In this document: one piece after another, positions 805 through 30,435 of the stretch | Numbering within the stretch: the first letter of the stretch is position 1 | Layout of the letters: the number at the start of each line of letters is the position of its first letter | IMG/VR virus record: IMGVR_UViG_2537561688_000008 | Length of the DNA stretch: 30,766 bases | Direction: 5' to 3' (one strand) | Source of the DNA: a virus | Taxonomy: Duplodnaviria > Heunggongvirae > Uroviricota > Caudoviricetes | Translations under genes and position numbers: made by a program | Notes under the pieces: generated by a model | The model's database searches: none | Seen by the model: the letters and a program-made list of their open reading frames with translations, nothing else | Told to the model about the DNA's origin: nothing

Positions 805-3021
805 CTAAGCGGTAACGTTCTCCTCTTCTAGTTCGTCCATCATTTTTAAATAATGCATTTCGTCACCAGTAGCTGAAAATATTGTTCTCAATTGTTTTAG
901 GTATTTATCTGGGTCTATGTCGCCCATATCAGTAATATTTACCGCATCAGAGTGAGAACCTCTGTTAATGTATCTGTAGAATGCTTTGAAATCACTGTTG
1001 CTATCGTCGCGTGCCAACTTTGTTAATTCATCTTGTAGAGCATCTGTTCTATGAACAAATGCAAAATAATATTCTAGTATGTTTCTCATAATATTAGGTA
1101 TTATGATTTTGTTTGCTTTGCCATCTTTTGCATCTTTTAATATTTGCCACAAAGATTGATATTCATTCTGTATGCTGTTTTTTTGTATTTCAGTAATTAT
1201 ACTAAAATCATTTTTCGTTACTCTACCTAGATAATAGTTTTTCTTAAATAGTTTGTCTTCTCTGCTTTTAGGAGATAGCTTAATAAGTTCATGAAAGAAA
1301 TAAAGATTGTGAGTAAGGATTAATACCTTCTTTGTTAATTCATTTTTTATAATGTGGTGATGAATAATTGATGCGATGTCGTAGACATAGTTTTGCGATA
1401 GACTAGATATTGGATCGTCAATAACAATAAAAATATCCCTGCTATCGGTATCATTTTTATCGGTTTTACCTTTACAGCACTCTAAAAAATAAAGAAACGT
1501 TATTAGTGTTTTTTCACCTTCGCTAAGAGATCTATAAACATTTTGGTTTTTTGTATGCCCTGGTCGAGATATAATGTACATATCTTTTCTTTCTGCATGT
1601 TTTTCAATACAAAAACCAGAGATCCCTAGATTTTTTAAATGGGTGTTTATTGAGTCTATCGTAGAATCAATGTTAGATATTTTATCTCGCAATGCTTTTA
1701 TTGTGAGATTATTTTCTTTTCCTTGTTGCTCAATATTATTTAATTCATCATGAACTTTCTTTTTGATATCAAAGAATTTTTCTTTGTGTTTGGATAAATT
1801 CTCTAAATCATCGCTGCAAAAAGCATGGAGAGCCCCCCAAACTTGTTTTCCGATTTTATTCTCATACTCTTTGAGTTTTTTAACCTTATCATTTATGTCT
1901 CTTATTTTTTTGTTAACAGCGTCTATGCTTTCCTGAACATGATTTTCTAGTTCTTTATCAATTTCTAATGTAACGCATGTTGATGGATTGTTGATCTTAT
2001 CAATAATGTTTATTAAATTTTTTTCTGCAATGTTTTGCAATATTTTAATATTGGAAATAATGATCTCTTTATCTTTCTCATTGATTAGTGCACATGATGA
2101 TATATTGTTTTGTATTTCGTTAAAATGATATATGGTATTTTTCTCATAAACTGACTTTATATCTGAGAGCTGTTTTACTTTCTTTGAATAACTTTCGTCA
2201 AATATTGATTTAAGGGCATTTAAAAATTCGCGACTAATAGTTTTTTCCTGACAAAACGGACATGTAGAACCGTCTAAATAATGTTCTTTACCTTTTTTTA
2301 CCCAGTCAAGATTATGAAGTTTATTAATGGTTTCTGATAAATAGCTATTGCTTGTATCTATTATAGGTGTTGCTAATGTATTTACATCATCAATTGATGG
2401 GGTATATGGGTGTAAAGGAGTTATTAATGCGGTTTCATTGTTTCTATTTTCTAATAGTATAGAGTATTCTTTTGCTATATCATTTAAATTAATAAAGGTG
2501 ATTGGTGAGGATGATTTTATCATCTCAAAAAAAGGTCTTTTATAGCCAACTTTACCTTTCATTAAGATTTTTAGTACAGAGTTTCTGATTGGTTCTGTTT
2601 TTTTCCAGATCGATTCGATGTATTCATTTTCTTTTTTTTCCATTTCTGCTTCTAATTTCAATAACACTCCTTTTTTTTGTCTATATTGCTCTGTAAGTTG
2701 CTGTTTAATTGCTTCTTTTTTAATTAATTGTTTTTCAATATCTGCATTTTCTTTACTTAATGTAAAAACACCTTTTTGTTCCTGTGCATTGTAGAAATTA
2801 TCTTCAATAAATTTAGTGTTGTAAACAAGAGGTTTGTAATTGTCAAGAAGGGTACATTCACACTCGTTATAATCTGTGTGTGTAGAGTCGTAGAAATAAT
2901 TTGAAATGGTAGATTTGCCACAACCATTTTGGCCGTATAGTATGTTTACTCTTTTTTCAAGATTCAGTATTGTGAAGGCGTCTTTCTTATAACTGGTAAC
3001 ATTTTTTAATCTAAGTTCCAT
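805..3021 (-). CDS. ABC-type ATPase with coiled-coil insert and C-terminal putative nuclease domain; RloC/PrrC-like candidate anti-phage protein (cargo island 1)
   Basis: Intact 738-aa ORF. Walker A GQNGCGKST near the N-terminus; ABC-signature-like LSEGEK, Walker B-like IFIVIDDP and H-loop-like LILTHN about 480 aa later; K/E-rich heptad-like stretches in between; CPFC motif mid-insert; C-terminal R-x3-E (RNILE) and R-x6-H (RYINRGSH). Visibly AT-rich compared with the flanking phage genes. GAGG lies 7 nt upstream of the ATG on the minus strand. Confidence 0.6.
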   Translation of the reverse strand: MELRLKNVTSYKKDAFTILNLEKRVNILYGQNGCGKSTISNYFYDSTHTDYNECECTLLDNYKPLVYNTKFIEDNFYNAQEQKGVFTLSKENADIEKQLIKKEAIKQQLTEQYRQKKGVLLKLEAEMEKKENEYIESIWKKTEPIRNSVLKILMKGKVGYKRPFFEMIKSSSPITFINLNDIAKEYSILLENRNNETALITPLHPYTPSIDDVNTLATPIIDTSNSYLSETINKLHNLDWVKKGKEHYLDGSTCPFCQEKTISREFLNALKSIFDESYSKKVKQLSDIKSVYEKNTIYHFNEIQNNISSCALINEKDKEIIISNIKILQNIAEKNLINIIDKINNPSTCVTLEIDKELENHVQESIDAVNKKIRDINDKVKKLKEYENKIGKQVWGALHAFCSDDLENLSKHKEKFFDIKKKVHDELNNIEQQGKENNLTIKALRDKISNIDSTIDSINTHLKNLGISGFCIEKHAERKDMYIISRPGHTKNQNVYRSLSEGEKTLITFLYFLECCKGKTDKNDTDSRDIFIVIDDPISSLSQNYVYDIASIIHHHIIKNELTKKVLILTHNLYFFHELIKLSPKSREDKLFKKNYYLGRVTKNDFSIITEIQKNSIQNEYQSLWQILKDAKDGKANKIIIPNIMRNILEYYFAFVHRTDALQDELTKLARDDSNSDFKAFYRYINRGSHSDAVNITDMGDIDPDKYLKQLRTIFSATGDEMHYLKMMDELEEENVTA

Positions 3022-15179: not shown

Positions 15180-17474
15180 ATGAGCACAAAATTCAGAACC
15201 GTTATCACCACTGCCGGTGCAGCAAAGCTGGCAGCGGCAACCGCACCGGGAGGGCGGAAGGTCAATATTACCACGATGGCCGTCGGGGATGGCGGGGGTA
15301 AATTGCCTGTCCCGGATGCCGGACAGACCGGGCTTATCCACGAAGTCTGGCGACATGCGCTGAACAAAATCAGCCAGGACAAACGAAACAGTAATTATAT
15401 TATCGCAGAGCTGGTTATTCCGCCGGAGGTGGGCGGTTTCTGGATGCGTGAACTTGGCCTGTACGATGATGCGGGAACGCTAATTGCCGTGGCGAACATG
15501 GCCGAAAGTTATAAGCCAGCCCTTGCCGAAGGCTCAGGGCGTTCGCAGACCTGCGCATGGTCATCATCGTCAGCAGTGTGGCCTCAGTGGGCTGACCATT
15601 GACACCACAACGGTGATGGCACGCAGGATTACGTTGATGACAAAATTGCAGACATGAACAGTCACGACGTCACCCGACGCCTCGCTGACCGCAAAAGGTT
15701 TTACTCAGTTAAGCATGCGACCAACAGCACGTCTGAAACACTGGCCGCAACGCCGAAAGCGGTAAAGGCCGCGTATGACTTGCTAACGGGAAATAACGCC
15801 AGGAGCCACCAAGCGCGAAAAGGCCTTGTCCAGCTCAGTAGGCCACCAACAGCACGTCTGAAACGCTGCGCAACCCAAAGCGGTAAAGGCAGCATATGAC
15901 CTGCTAACGGGAAATAACGCACAGGAGCCACCACGCGCGAAAAGGTCTTGTCCAGCTCAGTAGCGCACCAACAGCGATTCTGAAACGCTTGCGGCAACGC
16001 CAAAGGCGGTTAAGACAGCGTATGACCTTGCTAACGGGAAATACACTGCACAGGAGCCACCACGGCGCGGAAAGGTCTTGTTCAGCTCAGTAGCGCCACC
16101 AACAGCGATTCTGAAACGCTGGCTGCAACATCAAAAGCGGTGAAGTCTGCCTATGACAATGCTGAAAAACGTCTTCAGAAAGATCAGAACGGTGCGGATA
16201 TTCCGGGAAAGGATACCTTCACGAAAAATATCGGTGCCTGTCGTGCTTATAGCGGCGCTTTGAGCACTGAAGCCGGAAACTGGACAACCGCTCAGTTTAT
16301 TGAATGGCTGGATTCCCGTGGTGCATTTAATCATCCGTACTGGATGTGCAAAGGCTCCTGGTCATATGCAAATAACAAAATCATTACGGATACCGGATGT
16401 GGTGATATCCACCTGGCTGGTTGTGTCGTCGAGGTCATGGGAACTAAATCTGCAATCACTATCCGAGTGACCACGCCGACAACATCAAGTGGTGGCGGTA
16501 CAACCAGCGCGCAATTCACTTACATTAATCATGGGGACGGCTACTCCCCCGGCTGGCGTCGTGACTGGAATCGTCAGGGCGACGCAATGACCGGAACGAT
16601 TAATCAGGATGGCGGAAGCCAGAATGCCTATATGTCTACGGCCTTATGTTCAGGCACCAGAGGCGGCAAAAAATATCTCAGAAAGTTTCGTGGTGGAGAA
16701 GGAGACACTATCTGGCATGAAACAGTACAGGGCGGGGTAGTTCGCTGGGCGACTGGTAATACTGATGCTCAGGAAGAATTATCACTCAGCTCCGCTTATG
16801 GTCTCCGTTCAAGAGGTGAGATTACATCACTCAGTGCTAATGGTCTGCGCATTGCTTATGGCAATTATGGTTTCTTTATCAGGAATGATGGCAGCAGCAC
16901 TTATTTTATGTTGACTAAATCAGGTGACAGATTAGGCAGTTATAATAATTTAAGACCGCTGATTATAAATGATGCCACGGGTGCTGTATCAATGGGGCAT
17001 GGCCTGAATGTTACTGGTGATATTGTCTCAAGTACCAAAGTACGTGCCGGTAGCGGGAAAAAATTCACGGTCAGCAGCAGTAATACATCCACGAAGGAAG
17101 CCGCATTCAATTTGTGGGGAAACTCAAGTCGTCCGGTGGTGGCTGAATTAGGTGATGATGCAGGCTGGCATTTTTACAGTCAGAGAAATACAGATAACAG
17201 CATCACTTTTGCTGTTAACGGGCAGGTATCACCATCTAACTATGGCAACTTTGATTCACGCTATGTCCGGGATATCCGGCTTGGTGGTGCTGCCACATAC
17301 AAACCTGCGAACAATGGCATGACATGGACACATCAGGCACCGTCCGGGTGTGTATATTCCGGCATTATTGTTCAGGATACCGGCTCAAACTCTGCCGATA
17401 ACATTGGTGGCATATATTACAGACCGGTGCAGAAATACATTAACGGGACATGGTATAACGTGGCGCAGGTATAA
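15180..17474 (+). pseudogene. H: tail fiber protein (P2 gpH-like); conserved N-terminus, frame-disrupted repeat region, distinct C-terminal receptor-binding part
   Basis: N-terminal 140 aa (MSTKFRTVITTAGAAKLAAATAPG...) stop at 15602; repeats at 15697-16140 are in shifting frames; a long intact ORF (16140-17474) encodes the distal fiber ending ...YINGTWYNVAQV. Confidence 0.7.
15697..16140 (+). repeat. About 3.5 imperfect tandem repeats (~122-131 bp unit) inside the tail fiber gene
   Basis: The unit ...gctcagtag(c)gccaccaacagc..tctgaaac.ctg..gcaac.ccaaagcggt.aag.c.gc.tatgac.tgctaacgggaaata...caggagccaccac.gcgcgaaaagg.cttgt.cagctcag recurs from ~15697, ~15839, ~15961 and ~16092, with small indels between copies. 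Confidence 0.7.
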
Positions 17475-17477
17475 TTT

Positions 17478-18005
17478 ATGCAGCATTTGATAAATATAAC
17501 GGTGGGTAATCCAAAAACGGTTGAACAATATCAATTGACAAAGGACTTTGATGTTGTCTGGTTTTTTTCAGAAGATGGTAAGAACTGGTACGAAGAACAA
17601 AAGTATTTTGCTGATGACACGATAAAAATAGCGTACGACAAAGATAATATTATCCGCTATGTGGAAAAGGATGTGACAGCTATCAGACCAGATGGATTAA
17701 GTGTGGTTGAAGTGGCGGATATTACTGCTAACCGACGGGCGGACATTTCAGGGAACTGGATGTTTAAGGACGGCAAAGTGATTAAACGCATTTATACGGC
17801 AGATGAATTGCAGCAGCAGGCAGAAAACCGGAAAGCCAGACTTCTTGCAGATGCTGAATCCGTGATTTTGCCACTGGAGCGCGCTGTCAGGCTGAACATG
17901 GCAACAGATGAGGAGCGTAGCCGACTGGAAGCATGGGAACGCTACAGTGTTCTGGTCAGCCGTGTGGATCCTGCAAATCCTGAATGGCCGGAAATGCCGC
18001 AATAA
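17478..18005 (+). CDS. G: tail fiber assembly chaperone (P2 gpG-like)
   Basis: 175-aa ORF directly after H, as in P2. Confidence 0.85.
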
Positions 18006-18480
18006 GTTGTATAAGCTCTGGTGTGAGATTACATATCTATGGCACAGAGTAAAGCCTAATCTGACAGTCCGCTCTGTGCCAAGAGCGGACGTTACTACTA
18101 CTCGACCTAAAGTAAAGCAATTGTACTCATTAAATAGTGGTAATTGGGTCTGGTGCTTAATCGAACGAAATCTCATGTTAGGCGAAAAAAACGTCTGAAA
18201 AATCGATTAACACATACACCTGTGTACTATGGCCGTTATTCAATTTAAAAGGAACCATTTCCGATATGATTCACTGTCCATAATGTTTTGATTTATTAAA
18301 AAAGAGCCTTAGAGTGTGAAACCATTACGTTGAGTGGCGAACACCATTAATAAATTCTGCTTATACTTACAGCATATATTATGTTCACGTCATATAACCA
18401 TGGCAAATAAGATATTGCACATCAAGCATGATTATGATAGTGATTACAAAAATGAAGAATCTTAGATAAAGGATTAGTAA

Positions 18481-19416
18481 GTGGTTACATATAATTCAAT
18501 GTTGTTACCCCCCCCTAAATCTTGGGACGAATTTGAGGATATGTGCAAAAGTTCATTCCAACTGCGATGGTCCAATCCTAATCTGAACAGACATGGACGG
18601 TCAGGGCAGCGGCAGGATGGAGTTGATGTATATGGTGATGACTCTCTTGGGCGTTTCGTTGGAATTCAGTGTAAAAATACAGTATCAGGAATCAGTACGG
18701 CGACAATCGATGATGAATTACTCAAGGCTGAAAAATTTCGCCCAAAAATTACGGTTCTTTACATCGCTACGACAGCGCCCAGGGATGTTAGCATTCAGCG
18801 CTATGTAAGAACACTCAATGATGCCAGACAATTAAAAGGCCTGTTTCCTGTCGATGTGGTTTTCTGGGAGGATATTAGCTTTGATTTAAGCAAAGACCCA
18901 GCTGTACTCAAAATGTACTACCCGCAAATGTTCGAACGACACCAACCGACGAGGGAAGAATTTTTGCGCAAGAGAGATATCTCAAATTTGTCGACATTGT
19001 TGAATGTTATTGATTTTCATTCAACAATAGAACATTTGCAGTGGGGCGCAAAATACATTCATTCATTAATTATTGAAGAATACGATAATATTTTGAACAT
19101 TTTAAACTCACCTGTTTTTCAACTGAATGATACAGCTTTAAAGAATGTTACAATTGATTTTGCAACGGCCTGGCGTGATCTAATTATCTTGTTTAGAAAA
19201 GCTCCATATAATTATTCAGCACCAAATGATACTTTTAGTTTTATAAATCCCGGTGACCACTGTCGAAATCAGGAGGAAAGCGATTTATACGACGAAATCA
19301 CGCATAGCATGAGTAATCTCAAAGATAAAATTAGTACTTTTTGTGACTTTATAAATAATCACTACCATGAAATAAACTTAACCGAAACGAGCGCGCAAGC
19401 CAGGAAATATTATTAA
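18481..19416 (+). CDS. Hypothetical protein with N-terminal Mrr-like restriction endonuclease (PD-(D/E)xK, D...QxK) motif and a C-terminal domain of unknown function (cargo island 2)
   Basis: Intact 311-aa ORF with a GTG start at 18481 and AAAGGA 7 nt upstream (alternative ATG at 18499). N-terminal segment ...WDEFEDMCKSS...GQRQDGVDVYGDDSLGRFVGIQCKN... fits the Mrr catalytic pattern (acidic, DGxD, then hydrophobic-QCK). AT-rich; lies between G and FI. Confidence 0.7.
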   Translation: MVTYNSMLLPPPKSWDEFEDMCKSSFQLRWSNPNLNRHGRSGQRQDGVDVYGDDSLGRFVGIQCKNTVSGISTATIDDELLKAEKFRPKITVLYIATTAPRDVSIQRYVRTLNDARQLKGLFPVDVVFWEDISFDLSKDPAVLKMYYPQMFERHQPTREEFLRKRDISNLSTLLNVIDFHSTIEHLQWGAKYIHSLIIEEYDNILNILNSPVFQLNDTALKNVTIDFATAWRDLIILFRKAPYNYSAPNDTFSFINPGDHCRNQEESDLYDEITHSMSNLKDKISTFCDFINNHYHEINLTETSAQARKYY

Positions 19417-19693
19417 TACTTTTTTCTTAAGGGCTGCACTCATGGCCCTTAACACCGTTAGACTGTCATATTTTGCAATCGATACGCAGTTAGGTACTTT
19501 CTTGAAGTCCGTTCCTCGCTCATAGCTGACATTCAGCTCAATTAACTCGTCCACTTCGCTCCAACAGAAGGCGTAGCTAATCATACTGTGTATTAAAGAA
19601 AGGAGAAACGATCATGTTGAGTACAAAAAACACGAAAGACCATGATAAGGAAAATATGCGTAGAGTGACTTAGTTTATTGATTTAAATAATAT

Positions 19694-19870
19694 TTATGGG
19701 GGTAAGTGCTTTGAATAAAAAAACAAAAATTGAGAAGATTTAGCTAGTGCCAAAATAATTTGGACACCGCCCGTCATCAGACCCGCTACTACACTTATCA
19801 CCCCAGCCCAAAAAGTTTCAATGAAACAAGATACATATAGTAGTACTACATGGCGGAATAATTTACTCAT
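19694..19870 (-). CDS. Small hydrophobic (probable membrane) protein, 58 aa
   Basis: Minus-strand ATG at 19870 preceded by TAAGGAG with a 6-nt spacer. Product MSKLFRHVVLLYVSCFIETFWAGVISVVAGLMTGGVQIILALAKSSQFLFFYSKHLPP has a clear transmembrane-like segment. The ORF could extend upstream to 19999 (101 aa), but that start has no RBS. Confidence 0.45.
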   Translation of the reverse strand: MSKLFRHVVLLYVSCFIETFWAGVISVVAGLMTGGVQIILALAKSSQFLFFYSKHLPP

Positions 19871-20200
19871 AGGCTTCTCCTTACTGACGTAATCGTTAAG
19901 TAACACGTTGAGGTAACGGATAAATGCGACTATTGGGAGAGCTGTGATGAGAATTGTAGGCATAGGAATCGAACCTATGGATGCACTAGCTAAATTCACT
20001 CTTCACGAATTATACAGCATTGTAGTGAGTTTGTAAATACACGCCCCAAAAGTCAATCAGTCCGCTCCATGAATGTTGTGTCAGTACTACTAAAGTTAAA
20101 CATGCTAAAATAGGTTCCCAATATTCGTGGGTACAATCACTATCTGTGTAACTGGCGGAAGCGCTGGCATAACGACGATGCCTATTCGGGGGGCTTTAAT

Positions 20201-21067
20201 ATGGTCCGTTTTAACTTACTAGAAAATGCGTTGGATTCAGTGGAAACCGGGCTGGACTACTTTAACAAAGCGCTAGAAGGGCATGATCGACGTGACTACA
20301 AACAGTGCCTGCTTAACCTCTTTCAGGCCGCTGAGCTATTGTTGAAGGCCGTAGTTTCGCGCAATGGGTCTGGAGCGATTTTTAATCCAGCATCGCTTCA
20401 AGAAAAATGTGTGGATCCGGCGCATCCAACCGAGTCAGAATTACACCAGTGTAAATCTGTCAACGTCAACCAGCTTTGTAAGCTGTTAAAGACATATTAC
20501 CCAGCCGAATTTTCTGAATCTGCATTACAAATGATGAAAACGGTGGGTCAGTTGCGTAATAACCTTCAGCATTTTGCCCTTGAGGTTCGTCCGCAAGAAC
20601 TGGCAATGCAACTGAGTGAACTGTACCAACAAATTTTTCGTCCCGCATTCGTCATAATTCAGTCAGATGAGACCGAAAATTCATGGAACTCTGATTTACG
20701 TCAAGACATCATCGCTCTTGAGCAACAATTCCTTGATATAACTGTTAACCAGGAATACACCCTTGCACTTTGTCCCGTTTGTGAGAGTTTTTCACATTTT
20801 ATCCTTTACCAAAGTGAAAGCTTTCCGGCACGGACTCACTGTATCTGTTGTGGTTTCAGCCTGAATAATCTGCAAACTTGGGATTTTCAGGAATGTCCTG
20901 AATGTAGTGTCCCATCCGTAATTTATTTACCGGAACAAAGGGTCGGTGTCTGTCTCTGGTATAAATGTGAATACAGCAAGATGGATGGTTTTGTTCCTAT
21001 GGAGCCTTGTGAATGTGGTGCATTCCGGATGGAAGGTCATTGCAGTAACTGCGATCTTGAGGAATAG
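20201..21067 (+). CDS. Hypothetical protein with N-terminal HEPN-like helical domain (Rx4H motif) and C-terminal cysteine-rich (multi-CxxC) zinc-ribbon-like region (cargo island 2)
   Basis: Intact 288-aa ORF. Helical N-terminal part contains LRNNLQHF (R-x4-H). The C-terminal ~110 aa carry paired cysteines (CPVC, CICC, CPEC, C-x-C, CSNC). AT-rich. Confidence 0.65.
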   Translation: MVRFNLLENALDSVETGLDYFNKALEGHDRRDYKQCLLNLFQAAELLLKAVVSRNGSGAIFNPASLQEKCVDPAHPTESELHQCKSVNVNQLCKLLKTYYPAEFSESALQMMKTVGQLRNNLQHFALEVRPQELAMQLSELYQQIFRPAFVIIQSDETENSWNSDLRQDIIALEQQFLDITVNQEYTLALCPVCESFSHFILYQSESFPARTHCICCGFSLNNLQTWDFQECPECSVPSVIYLPEQRVGVCLWYKCEYSKMDGFVPMEPCECGAFRMEGHCSNCDLEE

Positions 21068-21430
21068 TAAAATCGTCCGATGAGAATGTACAGCAGCCTG
21101 GTCGATGATTTCTTGATGAATCGCTGAATTATCCGGTATTACTTGACAACTAAATCGCACATTTCTGTTTCTGGCAATTTGAAAGGTTTACTCTATGCCC
21201 CAGAATTCAGCACATACATAAAAACACCATTTCAGAACGCGTCTTGATCCAAAGAACGACTGTATGATAGATAGGCGTCGTCGTGAGGACAGGAATGATC
21301 TACCCCCCGTTATTCATACAGAATGCTGTTAGTAATGTCCGCAGATCGCTCAAAGCAGACTGTCAGATTTGATAGCGTTTGGGCTATGTAAGTAGCCAGT
21401 TGGAGAATGAGTGAGTGCAAATCAGGACTG

Positions 21431-21460
21431 GCGGGCGAATTGCCCGCATTTTCTTTATCT
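21431..21460 (+). terminator. Rho-independent terminator between cargo island 2 and the FI operon
   Basis: GCGGGC-gaatt-GCCCGC stem-loop followed by attttctttatct (T-rich). Confidence 0.5.
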
Positions 21461-21552
21461 GTTGTTTCATCCACTGACCAGCCAGGTCAAATAGCGTCTC
21501 ATGCACTGCCCAACAGAAAATAGTTGCACCCATTAACCACGGAGTTAAACGG

Positions 21553-22743
21553 ATGAGTGACTATCATCACGGCGTGCAGGTGCTGGAGATTAACGACGGC
21601 ACCCGCGTCATTTCCACTGTATCCACTGCCATTGTCGGCATGGTCTGCACGGCCAGCGATGCGGATGCGGAAACCTTCCCCCTCAATAAACCTGTGCTGA
21701 TTACCAATGTGCAGAGCGCAATTGCAAAGGCCGGTAAAAAAGGCACGCTGGCGGCATCGTTGCAGGCCATCGCTGACCAGTCAAAACCGGTCACCGTTGT
21801 CGTGCGCGTGGAAGACGGCACCGGCGACGACGAAGAAACGAAACTTGCGCAGACCGTTTCCAATATCATCGGCACCACCGACGAAAACGGTCAGTACACC
21901 GGACTGAAAGCCCTGCTGGCGGCGGAGTCAGTAACCGGTGTTAAACCGCGTATTCTCGGCGTGCCGGGACTGGACACCAAAGAGGTGGCTGTTGCACTGG
22001 CATCAGTCTGTCAGAAGCTGCGCGCTTTCGGGTATATCAGCGCATGGGGCTGTAAAACCATTTCCGAGGTGAAAGCCTACCGCCAGAATTTCAGCCAGCG
22101 TGAGCTGATGGTCATCTGGCCGGATTTCCTCGCATGGGATACGGTCAGCAGCACCACCGCCACCGCGTATGCCACCGCCCGTGCGCTGGGGCTGCGTGCT
22201 AAAATCGACCAGGAGCAGGGCTGGCATAAAACGTTGTCCAACGTCGGGGTAAATGGTGTTACCGGCATCAGCGCATCTGTATTCTGGGATTTGCAGGAGT
22301 TCGGCACCGATGCTGACCTGCTTAACGAGTCAGGCGTCACTACGCTGATTCGCCGCGACGGTTTCCGCTTCTGGGGTAACCGTACCTGCTCTGATGACCC
22401 GCTGTTCCTCTTTGAAAACTATACCCGCACCGCGCAGGTGCTGGCCGACACGATGGCTGAGGCGCACATGTGGGCGGTGGACAAGCCCATCACCGCAACG
22501 CTGATTCGCGACATCGTTGACGGCATCAATGCCAAATTCGTGAGCTGAAAACAAACGGCTATATCGTGGATGCGACCTGCTGGTTCAGCGAAGAATCCAA
22601 CGATGCGGAAACCCTCAAGGCCGGAAAACTGTATATCGACTACGACTATACACCGGTGCCTCCTCTTGAAAACCTGACCCTGCGCCAGCGTATTACCGAT
22701 AAATACCTGGCAAATCTGGTCACTTCGGTTAACAGCAATTAAG
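21553..22743 (+). pseudogene. FI: tail sheath protein (P2 gpFI-like) with C-terminal frameshift
   Basis: 331-aa ORF (21553-22548) is followed without a gap by a second frame encoding ...ELKTNGYIVDATCWFSEESNDAETLKAGKLYIDYDYTPVPP... up to 22743; the combined span matches a ~396-aa sheath protein. Confidence 0.7.
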
Positions 22744-28309: not shown

Positions 28310-28389
28310 TCCTCAATTTGCCTGCTGCTTAATGCATTGCAGATGATTTGCTTCCGTTATACTAGCGTCAGTTGATAGCGGGAGTATTT

Positions 28390-29292
28390 ATGAATCAATC
28401 TTATGGACGGCTGGTCAGTTGGGCGGCGATTGCTGCGACGGCGATGGCTTCGTTGCTATTGCTGATTAAAATTTTTGCATGGTGGTATACCGGGTCGGTG
28501 AGTATTCTCGCCGCGCTGGTGGATTCGCTGGTGGATATCGGCGCGTCGTTGACGAATTTATTGGTGGTGCGATATTCCCTGCAACCTGCCGACGATAATC
28601 ACTCGTTTGGTCACGGTAAAGCTGAGTCCCTCGCGGCGCTGGCGCAAAGTATGTTTATCTCCGGTTCGGCACTATTCCTGTTTTTGACGGGTATTCAACA
28701 TCTGATATCTCCAACACCGATGACAGATCCAGGCGTCGGGGTTATCGTGACAATTGTGGCGCTAATTTGTACGATTATCCTTGTCTCGTTTCAGCGTTGG
28801 GTGGTGAGGCGGACGCAAAGCCAGGCGGTGCGGGCTGATATGCTACATTACCAGTCTGATGTTATGATGAACGGCGCAATTCTGCTGGCGCTGGGGTTGT
28901 CCTGGTACGGCTGGCATCGCGCCGATGCTCTGTTTGCATTGGGAATCGGCATCTATATTTTATATAGCGCGTTACGCATGGGATATGAGGCGGTACAGTC
29001 ATTACTGGATCGCGCATTGCCTGATGAGGAACGGCAAGAAATTATTGATATCGTGACTTCCTGGCCGGGTGTTAGCGGCGCTCACGATCTTCGCACGCGG
29101 CAGTCAGGGCCGACCCGCTTTATTCAGATTCATTTGGAAATGGAAGACTCTCTGCCTTTGGTTCAGGCACATATGGTGGCGGATCAGGTAGAGCAGGCTA
29201 TTTTACGGCGTTTTCCGGGATCGGATGTAATTATCCATCAGGACCCCTGTTCCGTCGTACCCAGGGAGGGTAAACGGTCTATGCTTTCATAA
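28390..29292 (+). CDS. fieF: cation-efflux (CDF family) ferrous iron / zinc transporter FieF (YiiP)
   Basis: Translation from the ATG at 28390 ([49 protein letters not shown]...) matches E. coli FieF as I recall it; track ORF 28372 starts a few codons earlier at TTG. Confidence 0.9.
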
Positions 29293-29472
29293 TCAGTATA
29301 AAAGAGAGCCAGACCCGCATTTTGTGTATAAAATACCGCCATTTGGCCTGACCTGAATCAATTCAGCAGGAAGTGATTGTTATACTATTTGCACATTCGT
29401 TGGATCACTTCGATGTGCAAGAAGACTTCCGGCAACAGATTTCATTTTGCATTCCAAAGTTCAGAGGTAGTC

Positions 29473-30435
29473 ATGATTAAGAAAATCGGTGTGTTGACAA
29501 GCGGCGGTGATGCGCCAGGCATGAACGCCGCAATTCGCGGGGTTGTTCGTTCTGCGCTGACAGAAGGTCTGGAAGTAATGGGTATTTATGACGGCTATCT
29601 GGGTCTGTATGAAGACCGTATGGTACAGCTAGACCGTTACAGCGTGTCTGACATGATCAACCGTGGCGGTACGTTCCTCGGTTCTGCGCGTTTCCCGGAA
29701 TTCCGCGACGAGAACATCCGCGCCGTGGCTATCGAAAACCTGAAAAAACGTGGTATCGACGCGCTGGTGGTTATCGGCGGTGACGGTTCCTACATGGGTG
29801 CAATGCGTCTGACCGAAATGGGCTTCCCGTGCATCGGTCTGCCGGGCACTATCGACAACGACATCAAAGGCACTGACTACACTATCGGTTTCTTCACTGC
29901 GCTGAGCACCGTTGTAGAAGCGATCGACCGTCTGCGTGACACCTCTTCTTCTCACCAGCGTATTTCCGTGGTGGAAGTGATGGGCCGTTATTGTGGCGAT
30001 CTGACCCTGGCTGCGGCCATTGCCGGTGGCTGTGAATTCGTTGTGGTTCCGGAAGTTGAATTCAGCCGTGAAGATCTGGTAAACGAAATCAAAGCGGGTA
30101 TCGCGAAAGGTAAAAAACACGCGATCGTGGCGATTACCGAACATATGTGTGATGTTGACGAACTGGCGCATTTCATCGAGAAAGAAACCGGTCGTGAAAC
30201 CCGCGCAACTGTGCTGGGCCACATCCAGCGCGGTGGTTCTCCGGTGCCTTACGACCGTATTCTGGCTTCCCGTATGGGCGCTTACGCTATCGATCTGCTG
30301 CTGGCAGGTTACGGCGGTCGTTGCGTAGGTATCCAGAACGAACAGCTGGTTCACCACGACATCATCGACGCTATCGAAAACATGAAGCGTCCGTTCAAAG
30401 GCGACTGGCTGGACTGCGCGAAAAAACTGTATTAA
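29473..30435 (+). CDS. pfkA: ATP-dependent 6-phosphofructokinase I
   Basis: [32 protein letters not shown]...[11 protein letters not shown], 320 aa, recognisable as E. coli PfkA. Start at the ATG at 29473 with GAGG upstream, not the upstream in-frame ATG of the track ORF. Confidence 0.95.

Follow-up and report, generated by a model that had tools for sequence, protein, structure and literature searches.

A prophage cargo gene of Escherichia coli encoding a predicted HEPN ribonuclease joined to three putative zinc sites, a plausible single-gene immunity factor

What can be the role of a cargo gene that sits between the tail genes of a prophage and whose product is deposited as a ‘hypothetical protein’? 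The window analysed here, that is, the whole stretch of 30,766 nucleotides (IMG/VR record IMGVR_UViG_2537561688_000008), is a P2-like prophage of Escherichia coli, and in it an earlier note, made from the letters alone, had singled out an ORF of 288 codons whose product was read as a HEPN-like RNase candidate with a cysteine-rich C-terminus. The ORF list gives this frame at exactly the reported position, with an ATG start at 20201, and our analysis indicates that it is a real gene and a plausible immunity gene, coding for a predicted RNA-cutting HEPN enzyme followed by a putative domain with three zinc sites.

20201..21067, plus strand: HEPN and tri-zinc gene, complete (ORF list, RefSeq, PHROG match, 36 homologue clusters)

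The RefSeq entry for the protein is WP_000251361.1, carried by chromosomes of enterotoxigenic E. coli (ETEC) that share the stretch 18000-21550 with the window at 100% identity, and PHROGs holds an exact full-length match, phrog_20819 (E 3e-211). Pfam and NCBIfam returned sub-threshold matches alone; DUF3644 (PF12358) reached 15.7 bits (E 0.011), below its gathering threshold of 27.6 bits, the DUF3644 model of PADLOC reached E 7.7e-4, and Csm6 and CARF-HEPN models gave weak profile matches across the motif region. A search of PDB sequences with the single protein gave no match. Searching the literature and the DefensePredictor supplements by accession gave no match, and in the literature on PDC-S64 and related names we found no paper naming it.

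The gene lies in a cargo island bounded by the end of the tail fibre assembly gene (18005) and the start of the tail sheath gene (21553), with a GC content of 0.36-0.43 against about 0.56 in the flanks. The island holds two plus-strand genes, the HEPN gene and an ORF of 311 codons, and it occupies the P2 ‘Z region’, a documented defence hotspot inside the P2 tail genes that is known for anti-phage systems. The following features lie in the island and at its edges.

18058..18097, no strand: left arm of the 40-nt inverted repeat that encloses the cargo region in the Z-region hotspot
21330..21369, no strand: right arm of the same 40-nt inverted repeat
21431..21447, plus strand: terminator-like hairpin that separates the cargo from the tail sheath gene
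18481-19416, plus strand: 311-aa ORF (WP_001399106.1, phrog_8991), in the same cargo island

The two arms correspond to the ‘left/right inverted repeat’ features of the P2-EC30 Z-region records. The repeat core, AGACTGTCAnATTT, has a third copy at 19460-19473, between the 311-aa and the 288-aa genes, and this recurrence suggests that two cassettes were inserted one after the other at a site prone to recombination.

Other parts of the prophage deserve a brief description. A second island of low GC content (0.28-0.30) adjoins the portal gene and encodes, on the minus strand at 805-3021, a 738-aa AAA_13 ATPase; the gpA-gpQ interval is a classic hotspot of P2, and this island is that hotspot. Along its entire length the ATPase matches PADLOC PDC-S06 (E 5e-254), and its C-terminus weakly matches PrrC; it is therefore a second, PrrC-like defence candidate in the prophage. 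In comparison with strain 120899, the tail sheath gene (21553-22743) has lost one nucleotide at about 22536 and is thereby split into 331 aa and a remainder, and the tail fibre gene (15180-17474) is broken into three ORFs, with many 1-nt gaps at 15553-16055, whereas the cargo island is 100% identical in the two; the broken tail genes mean either that the prophage is decaying while its cargo is kept or that the sequence contains local errors. Finally, the prophage tail and late genes are followed at 28372-30435 by cation-efflux (FieF-like) and phosphofructokinase genes, which therefore place the right prophage junction beside the chromosomal fieF-pfkA region.

In the published definition, HEPN domains carry an Rx4-6H motif at the end of helix 3 or the start of the following loop, with a polar residue after the arginine, as well as an Ex3[KR] motif in helix 2 and an insert that separates helix 2 from helix 3 (Anantharaman et al. 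2013, PMC3710099). All four parts of this definition are present in the 288-aa protein.

20201..20665, plus strand: HEPN domain, residues 1-155 (helices 1-4 and insert)
20333..20347, plus strand: E45-x3-K49 (ELLLK) in helix 2, the auxiliary acidic/basic HEPN motif, with E45 and K49 invariant
20555..20572, plus strand: putative catalytic Rx4H motif, R119-N120-N-L-Q123-H124, where helix 3 ends, assigned from conservation and position

The N-terminal half, correctly described beforehand as helical, is predicted to fold as an up-down bundle of four helices (residues 6-27, 30-55, 106-124 and 131-155) with residues 57-105 inserted between the second and the third, and Foldseek agrees with a HEPN fold, its best structural matches including HepT/MntA toxins. 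The structure prediction that the earlier note had proposed as a check thus yields the four-helix bundle, with the motif where it belongs at the end of helix 3. The segment LRNNLQHF, to which the note had drawn attention, contains R119-x4-H124 with N120 as the polar residue after the arginine. In itself, the occurrence of such a motif is not significant, since an Rx4-6H appears in 56% of shuffles of this protein; it becomes meaningful because it is conserved in homologues and placed where the HEPN fold requires it. In fact, in an alignment of 20 full-length homologues, 32-99% identical, R119, N120, Q123, H124 and F125 are invariant, as are E45 and K49, and the first five are kept in distant relatives too, so that the conservation of the arginine and histidine, on which the earlier reading depended, holds down to 32% identity. 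A catalytic, metal-independent RNase with a composite site formed by dimerization is what these features would lead one to expect. Within the insert, C70 (20408-20410), C84 (20450-20452) and P76 are also invariant throughout the family, even at 32% identity, and the two cysteines are missing from PDC-S64-like relatives.

The C-terminal part is dominated by cysteines. The protein contains 17 of them, 13 within residues 186-288, and they form six C-x(1-4)-C pairs, beginning at residues 191, 214, 232, 251, 270 and 281, one more than the minimum of five counted earlier.

20666..20755, plus strand: linker helix (residues 156-185), where conservation is lowest (mean pairwise identity 41%)
20771..20851, plus strand: putative zinc site 1, C191, C194, C214 and C217 (invariant cysteines; beta-hairpins in both AF2 models)
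20894..20968, plus strand: putative zinc site 2, C232, C235, C251 and C256, a TFIIB-type zinc ribbon (invariant cysteines, profile match)
21008..21052, plus strand: putative zinc site 3, C270, C272, C281 and C284 (invariant cysteines)

All 12 cysteines of these three Cys4 sites (191, 194, 214, 217, 232, 235, 251, 256, 270, 272, 281 and 284) are invariant in the 20 homologues, and H199 and C216 in site 1 are nearly so. At site 2 the family profile matches the zinc ribbon of TFIIB (1pft, E 8e-4), and the two CxxC knuckles on beta-hairpins typical of this ribbon are found, from which zinc binding is predicted. The suggestion of one or more zinc ribbons is thus borne out by the invariant cysteines and by the profile match, and all three sites probably bind zinc, to judge from the protein sequence.

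With regard to known systems, the closest validated relative is HEC-08 (Hma-embedded candidate 8), a one-gene anti-phage defence combining HEPN and zinc finger, whose activity requires the histidine of the motif (Payne et al., bioRxiv 10.1101/2024.01.29.577857). The PADLOC profile of HEC-08, PDLC04162, matches the 288-aa protein weakly (E 4.2e-6, 24 bits) but along nearly its whole length, residues 14-285 against positions 20-300 of 358, while the HEC-08-like relatives P0071, P0078 and P0079 score 66-87 bits on it. The best PADLOC match is the defence candidate PDC-S64 (profile PDLC05059, E 4e-21, 73 bits), which likewise has a HEPN domain followed by multiple CxxC pairs; this match is limited to residues 1-139, whereas true members, of about 337 aa, score 315-467 bits over some 333 residues, and the 288-aa protein is therefore a sister family. 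Full-length membership in PDC-S64 was rejected, as the HEPN half alone matches. When the family was compared by hhalign with seven PDC-S64/HEC-08-like relatives, the alignment (probability 99.95%, E 1e-37, 266 columns) spanned the HEPN domain and all three zinc sites. This full-length profile-profile match means that the shared architecture is homologous and that the window protein belongs to a divergent sister family, which differs from HEC-08 in being shorter (288 aa versus a profile of 358 positions), in its family-specific insert with the invariant C70 and C84, and in its setting, namely cargo of prophages and plasmids rather than a gene embedded in Hma.

The best-documented working model for a zinc module that gates a HEPN domain is RAZR (PD-T7-4, ring-activated zinc-finger RNase), which also joins a Cys4 zinc-ribbon domain and a HEPN RNase in one polypeptide. 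RAZR is non-toxic until a phage protein binds its zinc domain; this domain, the most variable and indeed hypervariable region of the protein, binds rings of the phage (portal or Erf-like) and determines specificity; the DUF4145 HEPN, once activated, cleaves ssRNA nonspecifically and causes abortive infection (Nature 2026, PMC13017515). The differences are several: in RAZR the zinc domain is N-terminal, single-ribboned and hypervariable, and the HEPN is of the DUF4145 type with R-x7-H; in the 288-aa family it is C-terminal, has three sites and is not hypervariable, and the HEPN is DUF3644-like. A PADLOC search of the 288-aa protein gave no PD-T7-4 match at E<=1 and no DUF4145 match, and membership in RAZR/PD-T7-4 was rejected on this ground together with the reversed domain order and the different HEPN clade. 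HepS, a HEPN protein of the Gifsy-1 prophage, senses and acts while sparing its own prophage (Nature 2026, PMC13043305); it has no zinc module, belongs to another HEPN family and shares no sequence similarity with the 288-aa protein. The EC042_2821 clade, which overlaps DUF3644, was catalogued computationally in 2013 together with its ZnR fusions and restriction-modification links (PMC3710099), but its prototype has a C-terminal REase domain and the DUF3644 match of the 288-aa protein is below threshold.

On these grounds, the reading that we favour, and consider somewhat better than an even bet, is that of an invader-triggered, self-contained HEPN immunity RNase that stops translation, with the zinc module of the same polypeptide as sensor or regulator. 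As in other HEPN RNases, the protein would dimerize, and the R119/N120/H124 motifs of the two copies, with E45 and K49 assisting, could together form a metal-independent RNA-cleaving site. The C-terminal tri-zinc module would be the regulatory and recognition part, keeping the enzyme inactive in uninfected cells; binding of a phage component, or of one from another mobile element, would allow the HEPN domains to assemble productively. Translation would cease once RNA (tRNA, mRNA or rRNA) is cleaved, the invader would be kept from spreading, and the outcome would be abortive infection or growth arrest, favouring the lysogen and its resident prophage. The sensor role draws no evolutionary support from the family itself, because zinc module and HEPN domain vary to about the same degree (55% and 54% identity, respectively, cysteine columns excluded) and sensor-like diversification is not seen within the family; the module could equally bind substrate RNA rather than sense an invader.

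The distribution of the gene raises the question of which invader might be concerned. The family comprises 36 clusters at 90% identity, with 45 representatives at E <= 1e-3 among 1.8 billion searched, and a pattern-limited scan found it in 9 of 185,579 species genomes. Most members come from Enterobacterales, with divergent full-length ones in Aeromonas, Deefgea and a Sphingobacteriaceae MAG. Among complete E. coli genomes, 155 of 5,426 carry the gene: 28 copies are nearly identical, and 128 records share about 69% of their nucleotides with it; one copy, in E. coli D7 (L003 6695-8899), is interrupted after codon 39 by an IS4-like ISVsa5. In a protein-level search of deposited phage genomes the gene was not found, though PHROGs holds the exact family. 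The neighbourhoods of the homologues are rich in defence genes: CBASS (SMODS and S-4TM), DUF3800, a HEPN nuclease and TrlF at the plasmid locus, RES and UvrD in Dickeya, Cas1 nearby in Serratia, and Type I R-M, an SLFN-like helicase and Gabija on a metagenomic contig.

Since deposited phage genomes lack the gene and most copies are on conjugative plasmids, the target might be plasmids and not phages. The protein would then be a factor of competition between mobile elements, triggered by conjugative plasmids or acting on them, for example by degrading replication primer RNA so that the plasmid is lost, as proposed for Ishtar. Ishtar (ist1/ist2; XZW63086.1, MGQ1310977.1), from Acinetobacter baumannii, acts against conjugation, causes plasmid loss and clears RP4, and its C-terminal domain is described as beta-rich with three helices and without zinc (bioRxiv 10.64898/2026.07.06.735840). 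Compared by description, both are monogenic, with an N-terminal HEPN of the DUF3644/DUF4145 type and a C-terminal beta-rich domain, and Ishtar too resides in variable loci and mobile elements; it is set apart by a C-terminal domain without described zinc sites and by its plasmid-loss phenotype. That a single-gene N-terminal HEPN protein can clear a plasmid fits the abundance of the family on such elements: of the 163 places at which complete E. coli genomes carry the gene, 134 are plasmid-borne, and PLSDB holds 266 plasmids with a paralogue about 66% identical, 253 of them predicted conjugative, in E. coli, Salmonella and Klebsiella. However, plasmid residence is also typical of anti-phage systems, the copy in the window is prophage cargo in a hotspot known for such systems, and HEC-08 is anti-phage. 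We therefore regard the anti-plasmid role as unlikely, and the two roles are compatible with each other.

A toxin of an addiction module that stabilises the mobile element is a further, improbable explanation. Many HEPN proteins are toxins of this kind, including those of HepT/MntA, which appear among the best structural matches, and three antitoxins can be imagined: a small divergent ORF, an upstream antisense RNA, or a protein found in the plasmid clade. The first two would lie in DNA that travels with the gene.

19505..20200, no strand: upstream portion of the mobile cassette, also present in E. coli Ec1119, others and Mixta theicola
19694-19999, minus strand: small hydrophobic ORF, 101 aa from GTG (58 aa in RefSeq), travelling with the gene in E. 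coli and Mixta
20037-20009, minus strand: near-consensus sigma-70-like site TTTACA-17-TATAAT before the small ORF, divergent from the HEPN gene (promoter scan)

Besides this promoter, the small ORF has in its favour that its stretch is 95% conserved between E. coli and Mixta, against 86-88% in the flanking non-coding DNA. Nevertheless, the substitutions between the two show no third-codon-position bias, and the ORF was not found beside any divergent homologue, being limited to the near-identical cassette; given this absence and the ambiguous codon-position signal, it appears doubtful as a partner. In the plasmid clade (about 66% identical; L004 5911-9492, L025, L026 and L027), the HEPN-zinc gene is preceded by an abutting ORF of 362 aa with an RHH-like N-terminus (Pfam DUF6364, E 0.001) and followed by a convergent gene for a 521-aa HEC-04-like ATPase-TOPRIM, and the block is kept in an E. 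coli plasmid, Enterobacter, Superficieibacter and Dickeya oryzae, so that the 362-aa ORF abuts the gene in four genera. This ORF is, however, absent from the window, has an internal stop in L004 and is reduced to a remnant of 95 aa in Dickeya dianthicola (L010, L011), while the HEPN gene is intact in both; its loss counts against a toxin-antitoxin pair, because a constitutively toxic RNase should not tolerate it. Neither an MNT nucleotidyltransferase nor another known antitoxin is adjacent, no MNT gene being found in the cargo of the window or beside any homologue, and membership in the HepT/MntA (type VII) systems was rejected for want of an adjacent MNT gene.

A link between the HEPN gene and the upstream nuclease gene, implied by the earlier note, is not supported by the comparison of genomes. 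The 311-aa protein has no Pfam or PADLOC match; its family counts more than 170 clusters, with a conserved N-terminal half, called Mrr-type restriction endonuclease by some sources, and a variable C-terminal half. A two-gene system would agree with the adjacency of the two genes, on the same strand of the same low-GC island, in 13 E. coli genomes. Against it, the cassette formed by the 288-aa gene and about 700 bp upstream of it, from 19505, moves without the 311-aa gene: it lies in Mixta theicola at 93.9% identity with no P2 genes nearby, and in several E. coli strains beside S1 peptidase, DUF4236 and DUF2971 genes at a degraded prophage or satellite junction, and the 311-aa gene is likewise missing from all contexts of divergent homologues. 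Furthermore, the 784 bp between the two genes, which hold the opposite-strand ORF, the promoter-like site and the repeat core of the hotspot, point to two separate insertions, and a tblastn search across all homologue loci compared did not find the pair again. The 311-aa gene was therefore rejected as a partner on the distribution of both genes; since members of its family stand by themselves in Serratia and Vibrio, it probably represents a defence candidate in its own right, made up of one gene. The two-gene reading, which we consider very improbable, is thus largely refuted by distribution. Because no neighbour is common to all contexts, the 288-aa protein most likely works alone, an autonomy that appears less certain in the plasmid clade, where the 362-aa ORF abuts the HEPN gene.

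Equally remote is an inactive binder of nucleic acid or protein on a HEPN scaffold, like MtlR or the substrate-binding HEPN domains of nucleotidyltransferases: some HEPN families are indeed non-catalytic, and zinc ribbons, TFIIB-type ones being matched here, often bind DNA or RNA in transcription factors, but the inactive families have lost Rx4-6H (PMC3710099), whereas R, N, H and E-x3-K stay unchanged in this family over the whole range of 32-99% identity, and the genomic contexts are defence islands, not metabolic operons.

An additional observation concerns the zinc module of the presumed immunity RNase. In the metagenomic protein P0066 (372 aa, locus L023 560-1678), residues 273-370 form the same tri-zinc module (E 1.4e-8 to the query), but the N-terminus is different and shows a weak match to DUF4145 (E 0.023), the clade to which the HEPN domain of RAZR belongs; the protein looks like a domain swap between HEPN clades. 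This one sub-threshold case hints that the module may be a portable partner of HEPN RNases. Since the family resides mainly on conjugative plasmids and occasionally in prophages, it is also possible that it serves as a weapon of competition between elements. A broader proposal, which we regard as speculative and rather doubtful, would combine the two: a portable recognition domain, joined independently to DUF3644-like HEPN domains and to the DUF4145-like one of P0066, might sense a conserved feature of invaders, with a trigger and an activation geometry unlike those of RAZR and HepS, and make the family a general weapon against phages, plasmids or both.

The 288-aa family is a divergent relative of the validated single-gene defence HEC-08 and belongs to a kind of system that is already known; HEC-08, RAZR and HepS have established the principle, and no new category is opened. 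If active, it would be a further subfamily among the few HEPN immune RNases that consist of one protein and sense through a zinc module. A compact protein of 288 aa, with three conserved putative zinc sites and a high-confidence model, would then be tractable for the study of how zinc modules gate HEPN domains. The subfamily is found on P2-like prophages in enterotoxigenic E. coli and, in E. coli, Salmonella and Klebsiella, on hundreds of conjugative plasmids; its activity, if confirmed, would bear on host range in phage therapy and possibly on the spread of plasmids.
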